A DNA stretch of 64,000 nucleotides from Psilocybe cubensis (Eukaryota), in NCBI GenBank assembly GCA_017499595.2, contig CM039001.1, positions 2,976,001 to 3,040,000 on the forward strand, in the 5' to 3' direction. A program made the translations under genes and the position numbers. Positions 45,331 to 56,900 of the stretch are shown piece after piece. The notes beneath the pieces are model-generated. The model did no database searches, was not told the DNA's origin, and was given only the letters and a program-made list of their open reading frames with translations. Positions within the stretch are counted from its first letter, which is position 1. Every line of letters starts with the position of its first letter.

Positions 45331-46705
45331 ACTAAGGTATGACTTGCGACATTACTAATTTAAGGCAGTTGGAGATGATTGTGACACACCTGATATGAAA
45401 TGATATTATTATCATTGAATGGTAAGGCTTTTAACGCGTTCTTTCTGTTTGCTGTACTACTATTTTTCCACATATTTCGAAGTAAATTCACTGATATTAT
45501 ATAAAGTTTGGAAAAGTAAATGAATGTTTTGCAAACAAGGATGCAAAGGGAGCGTTATTTCAAGTTGTGCGATACATCCGACGCGCCCCTAATAAGACGC
45601 GTTTGATCTTCACGTGATGGGAAATAACACGACGGGTCTACGGCAGCACGCGAATCATTGTTTTACTTCAACTTGTATTGCCATAACTTTCAGGTCTTCA
45701 AGGGTCTTCATCATCATAACTGCACCCATACCACCGCCCATTCTGCTTGAAGATCTGCTCCCCAGTCTGCAAATAAGAACGTTCTATTTCTGTGGCACTT
45801 TCTGACCTTTTTCGGAACCACACAGACACATAACATTCACCAGTTACAACGACAAAATTTCCAAGCTGACTCCACAAGTTCACAAATTGAAGCTTGGTTT
45901 ACATCTCGATGGAATACTCTGCTAAAGTCGTGACGCGCTGCACTAAGGCCGGAAGAACTCTGGAATCTATTGCTTCAATTGCAACCAGTCAGAAATTTTG
46001 CCGTGTGGATGCTTCTGACGCGTACTCGACAGGACGCGTTGCGGATGATTTCACCGAGGGATCACCTAGCATTCGACCGTCAATTTCATCTTCGTTGTGT
46101 GCTAGTAACTGGTAACTCAGAATCTTCTGTGGCTATCGACGACTCCTATTCAACTATTCTCTGTTTTTTTCCATGTTGTCTGACCAATGTACCCCTCCCT
46201 GTCTTACACCTCAACAATCCCAACCTCTTTCAATACGGTTTTGAACGACCAATCAGAATTCTTTTCTACCAGCACGTGTAATGGTCTGGACCGTTTCTTT
46301 ATCTGTCTTTGACGTGTTTAACGCGGTCCCAACGCCTCTCCTCGTGTCCATCGATAACCGATATCTGATTTTCACCCGGTCGAAAAAGGCTACCAGGTGT
46401 GATTATAGCGAGTAGTGATGCCTCGAGGCGTACACGCTGTTCTTATAGCGAGGTGCAAAAATTCAACGCTACATCTGTGGTTACCCAAATTTTGCGGAGG
46501 TTTGGGCTCAAAAGGTGCACAGAATGGCGGGGGAGTATAGGCAGCAATACATCGTATTGAACGATTCAGAAAATCTTCTGATATTCTCGAGTACATTTAC
46601 TTGATAAAATGTCTTTCTCCTTCGGTGTTGCACCCAACTCTCTCTCTGGACAATTTTTTGACGATTCATCGTTCACTTGTGCTGGTACGCCTATGATATT
46701 TTCGG

Positions 46706-47652
46706 ATGTATTATTTCTCTGACCATGATATCATAGACCGTGATGCTACCTTGAGCTTGCTGGGTCACGAGGGCGCGATACCTTCACTTTCCCAATATTC
46801 TCTTGCCTCTTCCGGTACTTCTGGTATCGACGCGTCCTTTTCCGTCCCTCCTCGTCGCCCAAGCAGCCGTCGTCGCGAACCAGGACACATCCCTCGCCCT
46901 CGTAATGCTTTTATTTTCTTCCGCTCATGGTATATCAACAATATGCATGAGTCCAAGGATGTGAAGCAGAATGAGTTGAGCAAGCAGGCCGGCGAGATAT
47001 GGAAAAACATGTCGGTTGAGGAGAAGGAGCCTTTCTTGCAATATGCTGCTATCGAAAAAGAGCACCACTATGCTATGTTCCCTGACTACGTCTACTCCCC
47101 CAACACGACCACGGCTACCAACAAGAAAGCATCCAAATACAAAGTCTCTCGCGCTACCTCCAATTCGGTGTCACGGGAGGCGTCGTCGACTTCATGGAAC
47201 CACATTGGCGAGGTCTGTGAAAACTTGTACAAATTTTATCCCCTGTTTCTTATGTTACATCGCAGGTATTCCATTCAGTTGGATCCGAAACTCTTTCACC
47301 ATTCCACGACCATATTGAACACGTCTCCAATCAACAGGAGTATCAGCAATACACGCAGAACACGTCGCCTGCGTATTTACCTGTCCTTCCGCATACTTGG
47401 TTCAATAAGGGGTTGGACGCCGCTCTACCAGACACGACCAATTTATTATCTCCAAATTCATCGTCATACCCTCTCTCCGACACACCGTTACCCTTGACAT
47501 ATGATAATCCTTACCTTGGTTTTCTGGACTACACGTTCCCTGAAGTGTGTTCAGAGGCTGACGGTCTGATGCAACAGTTCATGGATGACTCGATGGAATG
47601 GTTAGAGCTCACCACCCCAGTTTTGGGGTTTTCTGCAAACTTTGGGCAATAG
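46706..47652 (+). CDS. HMG-box transcription factor (MATA_HMG/Rox1-like type)
   Basis: HIPRPRNAFIFFRS...QNELSKQAGEIWKNMSVEEKEPFLQYAAIEKEHHYAMFPDYVYSP; one probable intron near 47213-47265. Confidence 0.88.
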
Positions 47653-48336
47653 TATTCTACCTCTCCATGTTTCCACTCTGCCGTTAATAGATTATAGGTG
47701 ATGGTCCAGCTTAACATCGATAGGGATTACTAATAAGATAATACACGTATATCGATTCGCAGATAAGTCACAAAAAGATCAAGAATGATATCGATCACTT
47801 TTTCTCTGGAAGCAGAACCTTCGGTGTGAATGCAAGGTCGAGTCACTGCTTGCAATCGGCGGTGACGTTGCTGCGATGATCTATCATACCCGGATTAGGA
47901 AGGTCATTTGCCTTGCGATTCCCGTTATGGAAATTATATGAGGAGCCCCTTTAACTTGCGTTCGGCTGAAACACTCGTTCCTCCTGTTATTTCCCATCGT
48001 CAGCCTCGCCGAATGTAATCTATCACTAGATTTTCCCGCCAAATGTCAGAATAGCCGAGGTGCCACTCGAGAAGCTCGTACATCGAGGTGTGTGTGTAGG
48101 TGCACACAACACGTGCGATAGAACAACGAAAACAAAAGATAACAAACACCACACAACCCAGTTCCTCTATAAAAACCCACTTCTTTTCTCCAGAATCCCC
48201 ATCGCTTCTTGGTTTCCTACCACCATCATATACCTTCAACCAAGGCGGTCAACATACCACCTCCTCACGGCATACTATTACTTTTAACATCTCAACATCG
48301 CTCGGCGTCTAATAGACATACCCCGCCCTTCTACAG

Positions 48337-48970
48337 GCACGCGACGACGATGGCGACATAATCTGATACCCGCCCTGCACAAACAGCATGCGGCGGGTGA
48401 CTAGGTATCCTCTTCCATCTCTCAACCGTAATACCTGACCACACCGCTTGGTGTTGGCATAGAGCAGGACACTTTGGGCCTCCCACCTTTCGTCGATGCA
48501 CTCCCATCAATCCGCGGTCTGGCCTAACGACTACAAGGTAGCGCGAGGTAGACGTGTGATCTCCGCCGCGAGGCGTTGTACTCCGATGTCAGTTGTTCCG
48601 GGCAGTGAAGGGTAAATTGTTGCTTCACACGTCCATGATACATGCTCGGACGCAACGTTCTCAAGGAGGTCTGGACGGACGAGGTACTAGATTTCTTCTT
48701 TAGGCGCTCACCGGATGGGAGTTAGCTTAAAGGGGGGTCTAGTCGGAGCGGGCCTACTTGCGAAGGCGCTTAGACCGGCACCCGATGGGGTGCTCCTTCG
48801 TCAAGTTGCGGTCTGTCTTTTTCCGGAGGTGGCACAAAGACTAGTAAGACTCGCCTAGCAGCGCGGAGTCCCTGCTAGCGAGGTACATGAAAATCTTCTG
48901 TGACGTGCTTAAACGATTGGCGGTGCCCAACATGGGTGGACTGCTCGAAGAGAGTATTGGTTGATCAGAG
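48337..48970 (+). ncRNA. Candidate large structured RNA or structured non-coding exon, family unknown
   Basis: No long ORF; 5' and 3' ends complementary; many hairpins with G-U pairs; TATAAAA at 48168; bounded by a CTAAT...CTACAG acceptor (48336) and a GTGAGT donor (48971). Confidence 0.5.
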
Positions 48971-50412
48971 GTGAGTCCTTACCCTCTTCCTCATCGAACT
49001 TGGTTTTGATGCAATTGATTCAAGGTTGAGGGTATCTTGCAAGGCGCAACATACCATCATTGTTAACTATTTTCTCTTCATTGTTTTGTATCACTTTAAT
49101 TTGACCCTTCTATTCCTTTAGATCAGTTGCTGCCTAGCTCAAAATCATTTGAAGCCGCCTGGAATACAGATCAATCGTTATTCATAGAGCGGACTCCAGT
49201 GGGCGCGATGTCACGAACTGTTGACTATTTCCTTTTCTTACCTGCAAGAACTACGTCAATTGACGTATCTGTTTGTTCAGAGACAGTATATTCATGCTTG
49301 ATATGCACAAACCATCAGGAGATTCGAAAATTCATATCGCGCCCGTATCCATTCCCGATCCAATGCAAACTCAACGCGACGCCCGACGCCATGATCCTCA
49401 TCACCTTGTAATTTCATATTATCAACAGGTCGGAAACACATATGTCAACGTTGTTTCGTGGCACTACATATTTTGATCCCATACATCGACATTTGAAGAT
49501 AACTCCATGTTTGAGTCGGGACTCGGGACATGAACGCGGAGTTCACATCAGGGTTCGTCCGTTGGTTATTCTCACTTCCATTATACTAATAACATTATTT
49601 TACATCACGTAGCTTGTATAAGTCGCCTGCCAGTACACTACTTGACGATTGGCTTATTTGTGTTCTCTCCGTTTCGTTTCTGTTTTCCTTTGTTTCTCTT
49701 CATTTTATTTTCTTTTGAGCTTCGATATTTACGAGTTTCACTGTTTTCATCCTGATTTTCCTAATGTTTATCTACGATCGTCCAATCATGACCATTCTGT
49801 CCTACTGACGTACGCCAAAATACATCACATCCCTCTTTTGCCTCATTTTTCATTCAATTTTTGATTCCATTGGAGCTTTAATAGTGACATGGAACTAATC
49901 TACCCAGCTGTATTATACATACAGGAATATTACTCCATAAATCCTTTCCTAACAAGACTGATAGTATTTATTAACATCATGCATCACAAATACCTTGACT
50001 ATCAAAATACCTGGCTTTATCATGCTCCATATTAAGGTCCTTATCAACGGCATATGATACACACTCGATCGATTACGGCAGGGCTCAACATATTTCAACC
50101 ACTATGAGAGTGGAGGGAACTATACTTGGTGCTCATGAGTTACTGCGACGAGTGACGACTGATTGCTGGTATGACCGCTCAGCGCTCAGCGCTCAGGTCT
50201 AGCAGGAGCGCCGTGTGTGAGGCACCTTGTGAGAGTTATGGCGTCACATTGCTTGCGTACTGCAATATCTTGACAATAGCTCAGGCCCAGGCTTTGTATA
50301 AATGTTCAAATCACCTAATCTGGAAAGATATATTCCATTTTAGCCACACTTCAAGTTGCACATTCTATATCTTGCTTTGACACATGGAAATTTTATGTGC
50401 ACAAGTTTAGAA

Positions 50413-51671
50413 TTAAACTGTACGAGCTTGCCATTGCCACTGCCTGCTAGCTCCAGGAGTTGTCTGAGAGGTTTCAAAGTTTTCAGATTGCGTAGATTGC
50501 GAACGGTCCGCTCTCGATTCATCTCTATGAAAATTTAGCTGAGAAATCATTTGGGAGGTCGAACGGTTCTCTTTTTCTCTTTTTTCCTCGCGTTTTGTGG
50601 CGTTTCTGGAGGCGATAAGGGTTGGGGCTATGCCCTTTGCATACGGACTCAGAAAGTGTATCCGGTGCGAAGCTGCAAGGTTTACTCACAGTGACGGGAA
50701 CCAAGATAGCATCAAAGTCCTGAACCGCTTGAATTACACCAGGTGTAACCACTCCAAAGTCCAACATCAAATGCGTAACTCCACAGATCAAAATGACCGC
50801 TGTGTATAATAGTCCGGACTCGACCAGAATTTTTATGGTGTAATGGTAGCGACTTATGTCATTGTTTCCTCGACTTGATACGTCGACGATCCGATATATG
50901 ATGAGGCCGGACGTTGTTATTGTGGTGCACAAGGATAAAATAAAGTAGAGGTCGAGGAAGCCAAATCTAGACCCCAGTGTGATATGTAAAACCAAAAATA
51001 TCGGGAGAATAACTTCAAACTGTAAATGAGAAATGGCACCATACGCAATTTTTAACTCACTAATTTCTCCGACAAGAACGAGACCGTACACGGCTAATAT
51101 TAACTTGGTTTGCCATAGCATATAACATCGCCAAACCTGGACTCGGAATACAAAATGAAAGCCTATTCGCGACTCACGAATATGTGACGGTAGCTTATCT
51201 GGCTTACCATAAATGTATCTGCAATAATAACAGAAATTGCTAGAGTTCCATATGCCACTTTTTGCATCGTAGACTCTGGGCCAGTGAATAAATCTTGCGC
51301 CATTGATTCCCGTGAGGTATCATGAACGACCACCACAGAACGACATGTGCTCCATGCCGCCGCCAAGTTTATCACAATAACAACAAAAAGGGTGCTCAAT
51401 GTTCCGCTGACAATTCTCTTTTTTTGCTTTACAGAAGGCCCTGGGGTGTATAAGTCGCTAATAAAGCACATGAGCGGTCGAGCATACCAATAGCTTGGAG
51501 AAAAAGTAAAGCATAGATTCCTCGAGAATCAGTGTCAGTAGCGAAAACGACTATCCTGATTGGATAGAACCAACCTGTAGTGAATGACTGCAACAGTGTC
51601 GATTCGACAAGGGAGTCGATTGTCGCTTGGACAACCCACAATTGGTGCTGAGCTGATTGGGGAATGGGCAT
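50413..51671 (-). CDS. Agaricomycete multi-pass membrane protein (hypothetical, 7TM-like)
   Basis: Hydrophobic spliced ORF with IIADTFM/VWRCY, KILVESGLLY and GIAPTLI motifs; ATG at 51671, TAA at 50413. Confidence 0.75.
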
Positions 51672-52299
51672 GGTCACAATGAACTAAATCCATCGTTTCT
51701 AGTTTGGTTCGTTTTATAGGAAGTGAGAATGCTATCGAAGTAATGGCGAGTGAAGAGTACGGTCTTACTACATCCGAGTCGTTGGCAGTTGATCGCTTCA
51801 TTGGCAGTTGCCGATTGTTTATCCCAATATGGTCAATTCGAATAGGTTTCCAGTTTTGCGAGCTCCAACTAAACTTTCTATCAGCTGGTGACCACAGATG
51901 CGCAGAACGTCAGCTGTCATGGATAAGGAGAATGAAGATTTTTTCCCATGAGTTGACAACCTTTGGCTGTTGTAGGGTGTCGGCCGTGGCAACTCAGTGC
52001 TATTCATCTCATCGATTACTAAAGAAAGTAGCCAAGTAAGGGACCCCGGGGGATAGAGGGGAAACGGTGATAAAGGGAAGTGTCATGGTAAGTGATGATG
52101 ATCGACAAAATTTTTTCCAGTCAGAGACATCCATACAAATTACAAGTGCATCTTCTTGAGATATACTGACACACTTTCCTTTTTTTAAATAGCCTTCCTT
52201 GGTAGATTGCTGGATGGACGGGGATCTAATCCGAGGCTTGATTCAACCTCAGATTCTCTTTCGTTGAAGTATAACTGTGAGATTGTTTGAACAGGCTGG

Positions 52300-53252
52300 G
52301 ACTCAGATCTATATTGTCACCGACACTGACAGTTCACGAGCGTTGGTATCATACCCAATTATAAGCGCCATATCAATTGAAGGTCAACGTTTTCGAGCGC
52401 CCAATGACTTACAGTGACAGGGTCCAAGATAGCTTTAAGTAAAATTAAGCATGTAAGCTCAAGATATCTGCAGGATAAGCAGAATACCGCAAATAAGCAT
52501 GTTCTTGGTGTGAAGGGACCCCCGACTTGACTAAGATCTTGGGTATTCGACCGGTATTGAAGCTGCAAAAGTGACGCTCAAGGATGGCGCAAAGTAGACG
52601 TCAAGAAAATCCCAATGAGATCCCATAGTTATGTTAACAGCGACGCAGCGACGCAAAGAAACTGATTGTTAGAGGATCAATAAAGCTAAAATGATATTAA
52701 ATTTGCCAAGGGGTGATACTTCAATAAACCTTACCGCATTCTCCAAAAAAATACCACAGAGTATCCTTGCAGCATCCACCTGCTTCTCTCCCAAAGAACG
52801 TTGCGTCTCCATGCCTAGAATGGATCAAGGTGAATTTGTATCTTTTAGTTATGTTTATGCCATACCAAAAGGGTTTCGGAAATAGGAATAGCGAGGTCAA
52901 TGAGGCAATTGACGTCTTTTGTGCCATGGAATGGCCAGTGTTATCGAATTCTTGTATCATACCGTTTTGCGTAGCATTATCGAGGTCCACGAATGGGCAA
53001 AGCATTTGCCACACTACAATTAAGTTAGTACGAAATATGACGACGAGGGCTGCCGGCGTAACATACCTGTTTTGTCGACGAATGTATGTCAGATTGTGCG
53101 ATCGTGAGCGGAATCACAAGGAGTCATCTGTACCGATTCCTCAAAAAATATCAAACTACAGATGTCTTCAATAAATTTCAGATGGCTGATATGATAGATT
53201 CAACCAAAAACATACCTGTAAAGAGCAATTGGAGGTTTTGGCTTCTATCCAT
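52300..53252 (-). pseudogene. Decayed tandem paralog of the adjacent membrane-protein gene
   Basis: Fragments LQLLFT, AWRRNVLW, NITMGSHWDFLDVYF (vs HITLGSRFGFLDLYF), KILVKSG, AILDPVT and GMIPTLV in collinear order, with frame breaks and a deletion. Confidence 0.65.
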
Positions 53253-53944: not shown

Positions 53945-56900
53945 ATGAGTTATGAACGTCACGGTCGTGGAGGTGGATACCGTAATAAACGGAACCACTA
54001 TCGAGACAGAGGTGAGGAATGGGCGTTATGTTGAATGAGTGACTGTATGAAACTTTCTCTTCTGGGATTGCGCAGATGATTATGATGACCGCCGACGTGA
54101 TTATGAGTCTCCAGACGACAAACTCAAAACAGCAATTATCAAATTGGGCGAAGTTGTGAGCTGTTTCGTGACTTGTTCTGCTCTCACTTCGAAGCTGACT
54201 GTAGTATCACCAGGATCCTATAGAAGAACTTCCGCGGTTAGAACAACAAATTCGTGATCATGTTCCCCGCAACATTCCCATTCTCTCAGAGGCATTTCGA
54301 ATAGGGTACGTGCTATGCTCATTGTGGTTGCTGTGCACGATTCTTAACGCATGTTCTAGAGTTACAGAACAACCATATAAGATTCCTTTCTATGCTGCAC
54401 TTTTGCGTCTGCTTCATAACCCAACAGAACTTTCAATTCCTGGTGAATCACCGCTTGGTCGACTTGTTTTGGAGGATTTCTGGAAAGGCTTTCAAGCTTA
54501 CCTCGACAAAGTGGAGTGGAGAGAGACGCGTCTTTGCGTGAGTTACCCTCTTATTCAGTGGGAAGACAGTTTTATTGACAATGAATAGATTCATTTCTTT
54601 GCCCATTTGACTGTGGCCAGGCTGATTTCTACTGATTCTATGTTTGCTCTTCTTAGGTCATTTACATCTGTGTTGGATGAGTTCGGCGTATCCCATGGAC
54701 GAGCTAAACGGGCGGCTTTATGTGCCGGAGAGGGACTACTATTGGTTCGTAGCTTGACACTCAATTCGTGAACGAAATTTATGACATTGTTAGGCCGGTC
54801 CTGTCCTCAAAGCGGCCTCCCCTGCCATTACCGATGAGATAATCACAGCAATCCAAACATATGCAGACTCTACTGCACAAGAAAAATGGCTGGTATCGCC
54901 TTCTACTAGAATATCCAACCAGATGATGCCGAGTGACGGCACAGTTGAAGTAAGCTATTTAAGCAGCGCGACTCTACTGTCCACATCTCATTGTTCATTC
55001 ATAGCTCCTCGATATTCTTTTAAGTTCGTTGGTAACGTTAAACGCGACCGACTTCAAAGATACAGAAAACTGTGTTCCTCAGCCATATAAAAATAATGAA
55101 GAAATTGACTCAACGGTCTTGACGCCTTATGTCCTGCCCGCTGTTTTGGTTCCTCCTGAAGTCATTGAAATCGACTCAATGTCAACCGAGTCTGGTGAAG
55201 AATCTCAAGTTAAAAAAGATGAATGGCCCGAGTTCTTCATTCGTCTATTCCCCGACGACGTTCGTCCGTCCTTGATTTTCGCTCTATTACTTTGGCTCAC
55301 CCTAACCCTTCCTTAGGTTTCTCCGGATCCCAAGAGCCCTCCGGGATACATTGTTCGTACAGCGTTATTAGACATAATCGATATCTTCGAAGTCAACCGT
55401 AAGGAATGCGCAAGGCTTTTGCTGGAATATCCCAAATGGAATCTCCCTGGGACTTTCAAACCAAAACCAGGTGCCCCCGTCGAGTCAGAGCCTACGCCTG
55501 GCAAAGATTGGCAGCTCGAGAGTACCATCATCGAGGTAGCGTTTATTGATTTTATTATCTTAGTGTATTTTATCGATTTCCCATCAGACAGTTCTTGGTG
55601 CATACTTGATTCTGCCGGAATCATCCAAAAAGTCGATCTACTACATTGCTCTCATTACAGAATTATGCAAACTTTCGCCTTCAACAGTTGGTCCCGCAGT
55701 AGGAAAATCGATTCGTAAGCTGTATAACTCTCTTTCGGATGGCCTTGATGTTGAGGCTGCGAGACGATTTGCTGAGTGGTTTGCTGTTCATATGAGCAAT
55801 TTCGGATTTTCATGGGTGTGGAAGGAGTGGTAAGTAAAATTTATCCAATGAAGCTTCGTGAATTAAATACATTTGTTGTCGCTTTAGGGTTCCTGACCTA
55901 TCTCTACCCGTCCAACATCCGCGCCGTGCGTTCATGCGCAGGGCAGTTGAATTTGAGGTTCGTTTGGCATACCATGACCGCATTCTGAAGACGCTTCCGC
56001 CATCAATGCAATCGCCTGATGCGTACACTATTCCGGAGCAAGCTCCGTCACCTGCATTCGAATACGATGACCCTAGTAAGTGGAAGGCCAAATTTCAGTG
56101 CCAAATTGTACTAATATGGTTTCAGCCAATGCACATCATGATGCTGCAGTTGCAGTATTGAACCTCTTCCGTGGTCGAGCGAAAGTGGAAGATGTCATCA
56201 GCCACCTCGACTCGCTCAAGAGTACACTCGAAACATCAGAAGACGGACACATAAACGTGGACTCCGTTGTTCGAAGTATTGTCGTCCAGTCACTTTTACA
56301 TATCGGCTCGCGCTCGTTTTCACATTTCCTCAACGCGATTGAGCGTTATCTCCCTCTGCTACGCAACCTCGCGAGCGGCGGTATTTCCGGCTCTGGTGGG
56401 AGTGGAAATCCTGAAGCCAAGGCGGATGTGCTCACGGCTGCTGCCTCATTCTGGAAACACAACAGACAGATGGTCGCAATTGTGTTTGACAAGCTCATGC
56501 AATACCAAATAGTCGACCCTACAGACGTCGTTGGGTGGACATTCCTTAACGGTGTTGCTGTTGGTCAGCTGGCTGAATTAGCTGGGCCAATGAATCTTAG
56601 TGCGTTTGAGTGGGATTTGCTCAAAGGCGCGTTAGATAAGGCCAATGGCCGAGTGACGATTGCGAAGAGGAAAGTGGCAGCATTGAGAAAGGAGGATGAT
56701 GACGCTCGGGCTCGATCCAAAGCTAGGGCTGATGAGACTATGGAGGTTGATGCTGAACCGAAAGGTATGCATTTCTCTTTCTTTCGCTAGATCAAACGTT
56801 AACGGATACTTTTCTCAGAATCGGCAGAGGATGCGGTGCCAGCGGTACCAGAGAAAGAGGTTCCTCAGGTGGAAAATCCTGCGATAACAACTGCATTGAA

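Follow-up and report, generated by a model that had tools for sequence, protein, structure and literature searches.

Results

A spliced lncRNA gene lies beside an HMG-box gene

We analyzed a 64,000-nt stretch of Psilocybe cubensis DNA (GenBank assembly GCA_017499595.2, contig CM039001.1; hereafter the window), in which an earlier sequence-only reading had flagged positions 48337-48970 as a region without ORFs that folds end to end into a large RNA and is bounded by splice sites. All 22 of the strings quoted in that reading were found at the positions given for them. Four public sequencing runs were aligned over positions 46000-52000. One of these, X1, is a DNA run; X10 and X11, both from one study, are treated here as RNA-like because they contain GT..AG and CT..AC joints that are absent from X1, their RNA nature being a guess. 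The contigs of X10 and X11 do not show RNA ends, RNA level or the strand of the unspliced part, contig depth is not equivalent to copy number, and at least 83 more pieces exist beyond the contigs listed.

The flagged region has two neighbors, an HMG-box gene just upstream, with one joint in X10/X11, and a - strand membrane-protein gene downstream, with three CT..AC joints in X11; none of these joints occurs in X1. In between, four + strand GT..AG joints, present in X10 and X11 and absent from X1, give a spliced model with five exons, a length of ~1.9 kb (1888 nt) and introns of 54-61 nt (Table 1). RNA-like contigs with such joints cover the flagged region, which is part of an exon of a real spliced lncRNA and hence of a real non-coding gene. 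The depth of X10 contigs was 608-1335 over this transcript vs 14-102 for the HMG-box gene, a depth that is no measure of expression.

Table 1. Positions of the transcript model, the identity block and the predicted structural elements within the window.
Feature	Positions	Strand	Remarks
Exon 1	47897-48970	+	5' end is contig reach (47897 in X11, 47933 in X10); 3' end is the used donor
TATA-like string TATAAAAA	48168-48175	+	inside sequence covered by RNA-like contigs
Flagged region, 3' part of exon 1	48337-48970	+	GC 0.554; + strand ORFs of at most 55 aa
Predicted hairpin ACCCGCC/GGCGGGU, outside the closed domain	48361-48406	+	z -3.39 (+), -1.72 (-); boundaries picked after folding
Predicted self-contained closed multi-helix domain	48422-48964	+	543 nt, RNAfold
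Identity block	48429-48886		0 differences in 458 nt, X1 (one contig, among the contigs listed) and X10
Predicted clamp, 5' strand	48460-48503	+	pairs with 48903-48948; duplex energy -45.3 kcal/mol; pair probability 0.94-1.0
Predicted G-U-rich hairpin	48684-48745	+	-27.8 kcal/mol; z -5.0 (+), -3.1 (-); boundaries picked after folding
Predicted hairpin with apical GCACCC/GGGUGC stem	48745-48820	+	z -3.56 (+), -1.47 (-); boundaries picked after folding
Predicted clamp, 3' strand	48903-48948	+	carries the A/G polymorphism at 48930
Intron 1	48971-49024	+	54 nt, GT..AG, contig joint
Exon 2	49025-49061	+	contigs
Intron 2	49062-49121	+	60 nt, GT..AG, contig joint
Exon 3	49122-49219	+	contigs
Intron 3	49220-49280	+	61 nt, GT..AG, contig joint
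Exon 4	49281-49552	+	carries the longest AUG-ORF of the transcript, 60 aa, from 49294
Intron 4	49553-49612	+	60 nt, GT..AG (cut +1), contig joint
Exon 5	49613-50019	+	3' end approximate, last 200-nt bin with RNA-like contig cover

The two splice sites proposed as boundaries of the flagged region fared differently. The donor GTGAGT at 48971 is in use, as the joint 48968>49023 (cut +2, GT..AG) was found in three contigs of X10 and three of X11. No joint in the contigs of X10/X11 ends at the proposed acceptor at 48336, and an X10 contig spanning 47933-48420 (record 13) runs colinearly across this position, indicating that the flagged region is not an exon bounded on both sides. Two further X10 contigs are colinear over 48429-48886 (record 14) and 48393-48886 (record 19), and RNA-like contigs take exon 1 as far 5' as 47933 in X10 and 47897 in X11, which gives a length of at least 1038-1074 nt. 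The related idea of an exon that could circularize loses its basis because the acceptor is unused and the exon extends 5'; no back-joint was found among the listed X10/X11 joints, which come from contigs that drop rare forms. A TATA box at 48168 had also been noted upstream of the region; the string lies inside the 47933-48420 contig and can therefore be at most a second, internal start. In both X10 and X11, RNA-like cover is absent from 47782-47896 and past ~50020, and these gaps, in contigs of a single study, hint that the transcript ends near 47.9 and 50.0 kb.

Because the introns are spliceosomal, we infer that the transcript originates from Pol II. The earlier proposal of a Pol II structured ncRNA stands in this general sense of a spliced, ORF-poor + strand RNA, a sense that does not extend to a selected fold.

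The transcript does not code for protein

The transcript is without protein-coding capacity. The spliced RNA contains 26 AUGs and its longest AUG-ORF spans only 60 codons' worth of protein (60 aa); within the flagged region, stop-to-stop ORFs reach at most 55 aa on the + strand and 85 aa on the - strand, in keeping with its description as ORF-less. Coding control stretches all gave a period-3 signal (8/8, values of 2.25-7.67), which was absent from the region (0.47, p 0.83), from the more 5' stretch of exon 1 (0.30) and from exons 4-5 (0.96). Pfam searches of 10 ORF pieces at E<=10 gave best two E values of 0.094 and 0.14, far under the cut-offs. The 55-aa + frame had no protein relatives in either a near search or a longer search, and a search with the 85-aa - frame also gave none. 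The sole match of the - strand frame, from a full HMMER search (E 1.4e-5; 22 residues, 36% identity), was rejected because the same 22-residue match recurs ~18 times in one tandem-repeat protein. Reading TGA as W opened no long ORF, and no CaaX pheromone-precursor ORF was found in the transcript.

These results bear on the suggestion that the region might be an IRES-like leader for a small ORF. More broadly, the region could serve a small-protein mRNA as a long structured 5' leader, IRES-like or acting on translation in some other way, with the protein encoded either by the 60-aa ORF (49294-49476) or by a 47-aa ORF at 48715, and it does lie upstream of small ORFs within the same spliced transcript. 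We consider such a leader improbable, as 15 AUGs lie ahead of the 60-aa ORF and ten ahead of the 47-aa one, codon periodicity is absent from both the region and exons 4-5, and Pfam is blank for both ORF frames. The 55-aa frame, which is without relatives, is the one that holds the 47-aa ORF; the lack of a CaaX pheromone-type ORF and the fact that the versions described below diverge in the downstream exons also count against a leader.

A second explanation would make the region a relic, either of a decayed coding sequence or of a transposable element or LTR, inside a transcribed exon. Such a relic could account for a region with no ORF yet a GC content like that of coding sequence, and the summed depth of X1 contigs over 46.2-49.0 kb, which is ~3.5x that of single-version contigs and is not a copy number, would also be in line with it. 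The absence of a period-3 signal, of Pfam matches near cut-off, of protein relatives and of a long ORF when TGA is read as W all argue against a relic. In addition, no second copy of the region (paralogue) was found within the 64 kb, no TE-like terminal direct or inverted repeats were found around it, and the other versions of the locus are homologous through the flanks too, as for alleles or segmental copies and not for insertions. We therefore regard a relic of either kind as very improbable.

The transcript matches no known structured RNA family

A search against Rfam gave 0 matches over the whole 64 kb at gathering score and 0 matches over 47900-49700 even at E<=10, in agreement with the earlier failure to place the region in a known RNA family. 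The C box of box C/D snoRNAs has the form RUGAUGA, and no TGATGA occurs in the transcript; a P4-type string is a motif of RNase P/MRP RNA, and no P4-like string occurs in the transcript. In a search for a telomerase template over 47897-50019, two isolated 6-mers of (CCCTAA)n were the only matches and no 8-mer occurred.

Four candidates were rejected on these grounds: a box C/D snoRNA (no TGATGA, no Rfam match), RNase P/MRP RNA (no Rfam covariance-model match at E<=10, P4-type string absent), telomerase RNA (a template of ~1.5 telomere repeats is not in the transcript) and a group I or other self-splicing element (contigs colinear over 48429-48886, no Rfam match at E<=10). The sequence-only reading had mentioned a ribozyme-like element and a loose resemblance to group I Q/R elements; neither idea is supported by Rfam or by the RNA contigs, which are colinear through the region.

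A divergent telomerase RNA, RNase P/MRP RNA, snoRNA or snoRNA cluster, or group I intron would be compatible with the size of the region and with the multi-helix prediction described below. The predicted domain also ends 6 nt before the 5' splice site of intron 1, an arrangement that recalls 3'-end formation in some ascomycete telomerase RNAs. Set against this are the zero Rfam matches at E<=10, the absence of a telomerase template, C box and P4-like string, and the splicing of the transcript itself: intron 1 is completely removed, the RNA continues, and the region is not excised. A divergent member of any of these classes seems to us scarcely credible.

Searches for relatives were made with the pseudo-ORF of the core (48691-48858), which gave 597 pattern matches in metagenome contigs, 556 in prokaryote genomes and 172 in viral contigs, with 0 confirmed in each case. 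When metagenome contigs were searched with the HMG-box exon to anchor synteny, 251 pattern matches resulted, of which 0 were confirmed. A limited search of the literature on conserved lncRNA secondary structure in Agaricomycetes, covering titles and the starts of abstracts, found no such element there.

The exon core is predicted to fold into a closed domain

For the + strand of the flagged region, RNAfold gave an MFE of -244.9 kcal/mol, compared to a mean of -225.8 (sd 7.15) for 20 dinucleotide shuffles. The resulting z for the 634-nt region was -2.67 on the + strand (0/20 shuffles as stable) and -1.44 on the - strand (3/20). For the closed domain, z was -3.48 on the + strand, where all 150 shuffles were less stable, and -2.44 on the - strand, where 2/150 were as stable. 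The MFE structure contains the closing pairings 48422-28/48958-64, 48431-34/48954-57, 48462-67/48941-46, 48470-73/48935-38 and 48474-79/48925-30, and hairpins at 48367-99, 48439-57, 48686-743, 48777-94 and 48850-82. The nested closing pairings and most of the local helices noted previously are thus recovered. The exception is the helix GACGTGTGA/TCACACGTC (48551/48625), which had a probability of 0.0 in the full-length fold. The pairing ACTCCCATC/GATGGGAGT (48500/48714), suggested as a pseudoknot or alternative fold, also had a probability of 0.0 there, and its 9-bp match is at chance level.

When the full 1888-nt spliced RNA was folded, 0/543 bases of the domain paired outside it. Mean pair probabilities in this full-transcript fold were 0.80-1.0 for the closing helices, with 0.94-1.0 for the clamp and 0.80-0.95 for the two outermost helices. 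The clamp is predicted to be an interrupted, long-range helix of ~29 bp that encloses several hairpins. In a search for clamp partners among 6396 tiles over the 64 kb, the true partner was the best (-44.1; next best, -40.2), a ranking that, by our estimate, is only marginally significant after correction for how the segment was chosen.

The stability of the domain was compared to that of 14 control windows of 543 nt in the 64 kb (30 shuffles each), which had a mean z of -0.41 (sd 2.56). One of the 14 had a z below the -3.48 of the domain, and two were at or below -3.36. The shuffle comparison on both strands, which the sequence-only reading had proposed as a check, came out in favor of the fold for the + strand, but with a z that is not exceptional for the genome, a point against a functional RNA module. 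The control at 14900 (z -7.0) is an inverted-repeat cluster, and that at 36400 (z -3.36) is low-complexity sequence.

Perfect Watson-Crick inverted repeats in the region numbered 5 at >=7 nt (9.1 expected), 2 at >=8 nt (2.2 expected) and 2 at >=9 nt (0.57 expected; 36/300 shuffles reach 2). In 120-nt windows, the mean z was -0.64 (+) and -0.67 (-) inside the region (n=13), with no strand difference, and 0.05 (+) and 0.10 (-) outside it (n=62). With perfect helices at or below chance level and only a weak signal in 120-nt windows, the fold signal therefore comes from composite, G-U-containing helices, namely the clamp and three hairpins that each have a lower z on the + than on the - strand (Table 1). 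We consider the predicted structure of the exon core plausible, with computed support that appears to go only moderately beyond chance.

The core is identical among otherwise divergent versions

The DNA run contains two versions of the sequence over 47801/47874-48422, which depart from the window at 9 and 68 letters, and both stop at 48422. For the more divergent version, this corresponds to 68 differences in 549 letters just upstream of the identity block, or ~12%. Within the block itself, X1 and X10 match the window at every position (Table 1). The X1 contig that carries the block is the only piece in the 48613-48813 bin, among the contigs listed, and its depth is about the sum of the two upstream contigs. 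X11 has 1 difference and a 1-nt deletion over the block; the deletion, at 48853, falls inside a predicted helix and speaks against a functional RNA module.

The block starts no more than 7 nt from the 5' boundary of the predicted domain. At the other end, identity continues through intron 1 to ~49050, past the domain of the mature RNA. From ~49051-49113 onward, the other versions are diverged yet recognizably related in a loose-end comparison, and downstream of ~49216 only the window's own version aligned at >=80% likeness in X1, among the contigs listed. The RNA-like runs contain two continuations after exon 2 besides that of the window, and at least three versions are therefore expressed.

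The sole variant placed in a helix is an A/G polymorphism at 48930, which turns a U-A pair with U48474 into U-G and so keeps the pair. This observation says little because, by our own count of cases, a pair-keeping transition is expected about half the time by chance.

The GC content of the region also differs from that of its surroundings, being 0.554 vs 0.466 in the upstream part of exon 1, with a local peak of 0.55-0.57 vs flanks of 0.43-0.48. The peak is only local, as 6.4% of 540-nt windows across the 64 kb reach a GC content of >=0.55.

The identity of the block fits two processes, GC-biased gene conversion and selection acting on an RNA module. Full identity over 458 nt beside 12% divergence exceeds what selection on an RNA usually produces, and recent homogenization at the DNA level fits equally well or better. 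An explanation at the DNA level would make the region an lncRNA exon with an incidental fold, its GC-rich identical block produced by recurrent or recent GC-biased gene conversion, or by recombination, among very divergent haplotypes; identity and GC content would then be DNA-level features, with no function that depends on structure. We hold this to be a distinct, if somewhat doubtful, possibility. The local GC peak would be expected from it, as would the sharp edges of a block with no differences beside 68/549 upstream and versions of <80% likeness downstream. The continuation of identity through intron 1, beyond the domain of the mature RNA, and the 2/14 control windows that match the fold z point the same way, and a GC-rich tract at the Cryptococcus MAT locus offers a precedent (PMC3390403).

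Several observations count against gene conversion as the full explanation. GC content is already accounted for in the dinucleotide shuffles, against which the fold was still favored (0/150), more strongly on the transcribed strand; the GC peak, as noted above, is only local. Nothing marks the locus as MAT, since a Pfam search of 30 ORF pieces (27 from 41.5-57 kb) found only HMG box, MIF4G-like and NIF families and no homeodomain or STE3-type family. Gene conversion and an RNA function are, moreover, not mutually exclusive.

Discussion

The reading to which we commit, tentatively, is that the core of exon 1 is a selected RNA module of the lncRNA. The flagged region forms the GC-rich 3' portion of exon 1 in a five-exon lncRNA gene, which lies just downstream of the HMG-box gene in a basidiomycete-type genome with short introns of ~55-60 nt. 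The RNA is transcribed from the + strand, and splicing takes out the four short GT-AG introns downstream and keeps the region in the mature RNA. The core, at 48422-48964, would work as RNA, folding on itself into a closed module in which the clamp encloses several hairpins, and this module could be a stable protein-binding or stabilizing element of the lncRNA, perhaps acting on the neighboring HMG-box gene. Such a reading supposes that the fold would form in the cell, would be under selection and would have a function of some kind.

Strand-specific, composition-corrected stability and a self-contained fold favor an RNA module. Complete identity beside 12% divergence favors gene conversion, or both acting together, and the two readings fit nearly equally well. 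A stronger form of the RNA-module reading would make the 543-nt core a new large structured RNA family in exon 1, kept invariant by selection among haplotypes at least 12% diverged and acting as an RNP scaffold or regulating in cis the neighboring HMG-box transcription-factor gene in mushroom-forming fungi. We think this stronger form unlikely.

Under either of the two main readings, the locus deserves annotation as a non-coding gene, and not as intergenic DNA or as a small-ORF gene. If the fold is selected, the locus would provide a tractable example of a structured lncRNA, with an apparently abundant RNA and a compact, self-contained core beside a gene for a transcription factor. Should the identity block instead have arisen by gene conversion, it would mark a recombination hotspot within unusually diverged haplotypes and would bear on the upkeep of diverged regions.

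The closest parallel to the identity block is found at the MAT locus of Cryptococcus neoformans, where, according to the published account, gene conversion in tracts of 560-2100 bp homogenizes a 0.614-kb GC-rich intergenic region across diverged alleles (PMC3390403). Like that tract, the block described here coincides with a ~0.6-kb GC peak homogenized amid strongly diverged haplotypes. Unlike it, the block lies within an exon and appears in RNA-like contigs, the Pfam search turned up no MAT genes in the vicinity, and the genome features point to a different basidiomycete lineage.

Among structured RNAs, the transcript can be compared to the TER of Ustilago maydis, which, according to the source, has a 9-nt template, UAACCCUAA, the template of a telomerase RNA being ~1.5 telomere repeats (PMC9564094). 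In both cases a long structured RNA (here a predicted one) is part of a Pol II transcript that undergoes splicing as well, whereas the template, which is the defining feature of TER, is absent here. The region likewise resembles group I introns and RNase P/MRP RNAs in size and in its predicted closed, multi-helix architecture; unlike them, it has no model match at E<=10, is not excised and lacks core motifs of these RNAs.

The transcript as a whole is most like the spliced, Pol II-type lncRNAs of fungi, with GT-AG introns, many short ORFs, no long ORF, no periodicity and no protein homologues, and, like such lncRNAs, it combines rapid divergence elsewhere with one highly conserved stretch. To our knowledge, a structured module has been defined for few fungal lncRNAs and for hardly any from mushroom-forming species. 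What distinguishes this transcript from fungal lncRNAs generally is a 543-nt GC-rich core that is predicted to form a self-contained closed fold and that is identical among divergent versions.

Neighbouring genes and repeats

The immediate upstream neighbour of the lncRNA exon is an HMG-box gene, which has a Pfam HMG_box match (E 2e-12) and is covered by spliced RNA-like contigs. The DNA sequencing run X1 holds versions of this gene that are ~10–15% diverged from the window (30 differences/287 nt; 76/501 nt), and diverged versions are also present in the RNA-like runs.

Downstream lies a spliced gene with three CT..AC joints in the RNA-like run X11. Its product is a multi-pass membrane-like protein, for which no Pfam family was found. 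A 32-nt segment of this gene recurs further along at 81% identity, suggesting a tandem paralogue. Beyond it, a telomere-type repeat run of 11 nt, probably a chance occurrence, sits a short way upstream of an ORF whose MIF4G-like domain is of the cap-binding-protein type.

Features of the window flanking the lncRNA exon
Feature	Position	Strand	Detail
Inverted repeat	14764–15439		arms 39 nt, 97% complementary, spacing 598 nt
Perfect 30-nt palindrome	14886–14947		
Overlapping low-complexity ORFs	36261–36800		dipeptide-type repeats PE, IP, ST
HMG-box gene	46198–47781	+	
Membrane-like gene	50525–51900	-	
32-nt segment	50684–50715		
Its recurrence	52407–52438		
Telomere-type run	55299–55309	+	complement orientation

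Two other stretches were among those folded. The low-complexity ORFs gave the second-lowest z-score among the control windows (-3.36). For a 543-nt window at the inverted repeat, z was -7.0. The inverted repeat encloses the perfect palindrome and several 18-nt repeats, and is possibly an element of the foldback or MITE-like type.
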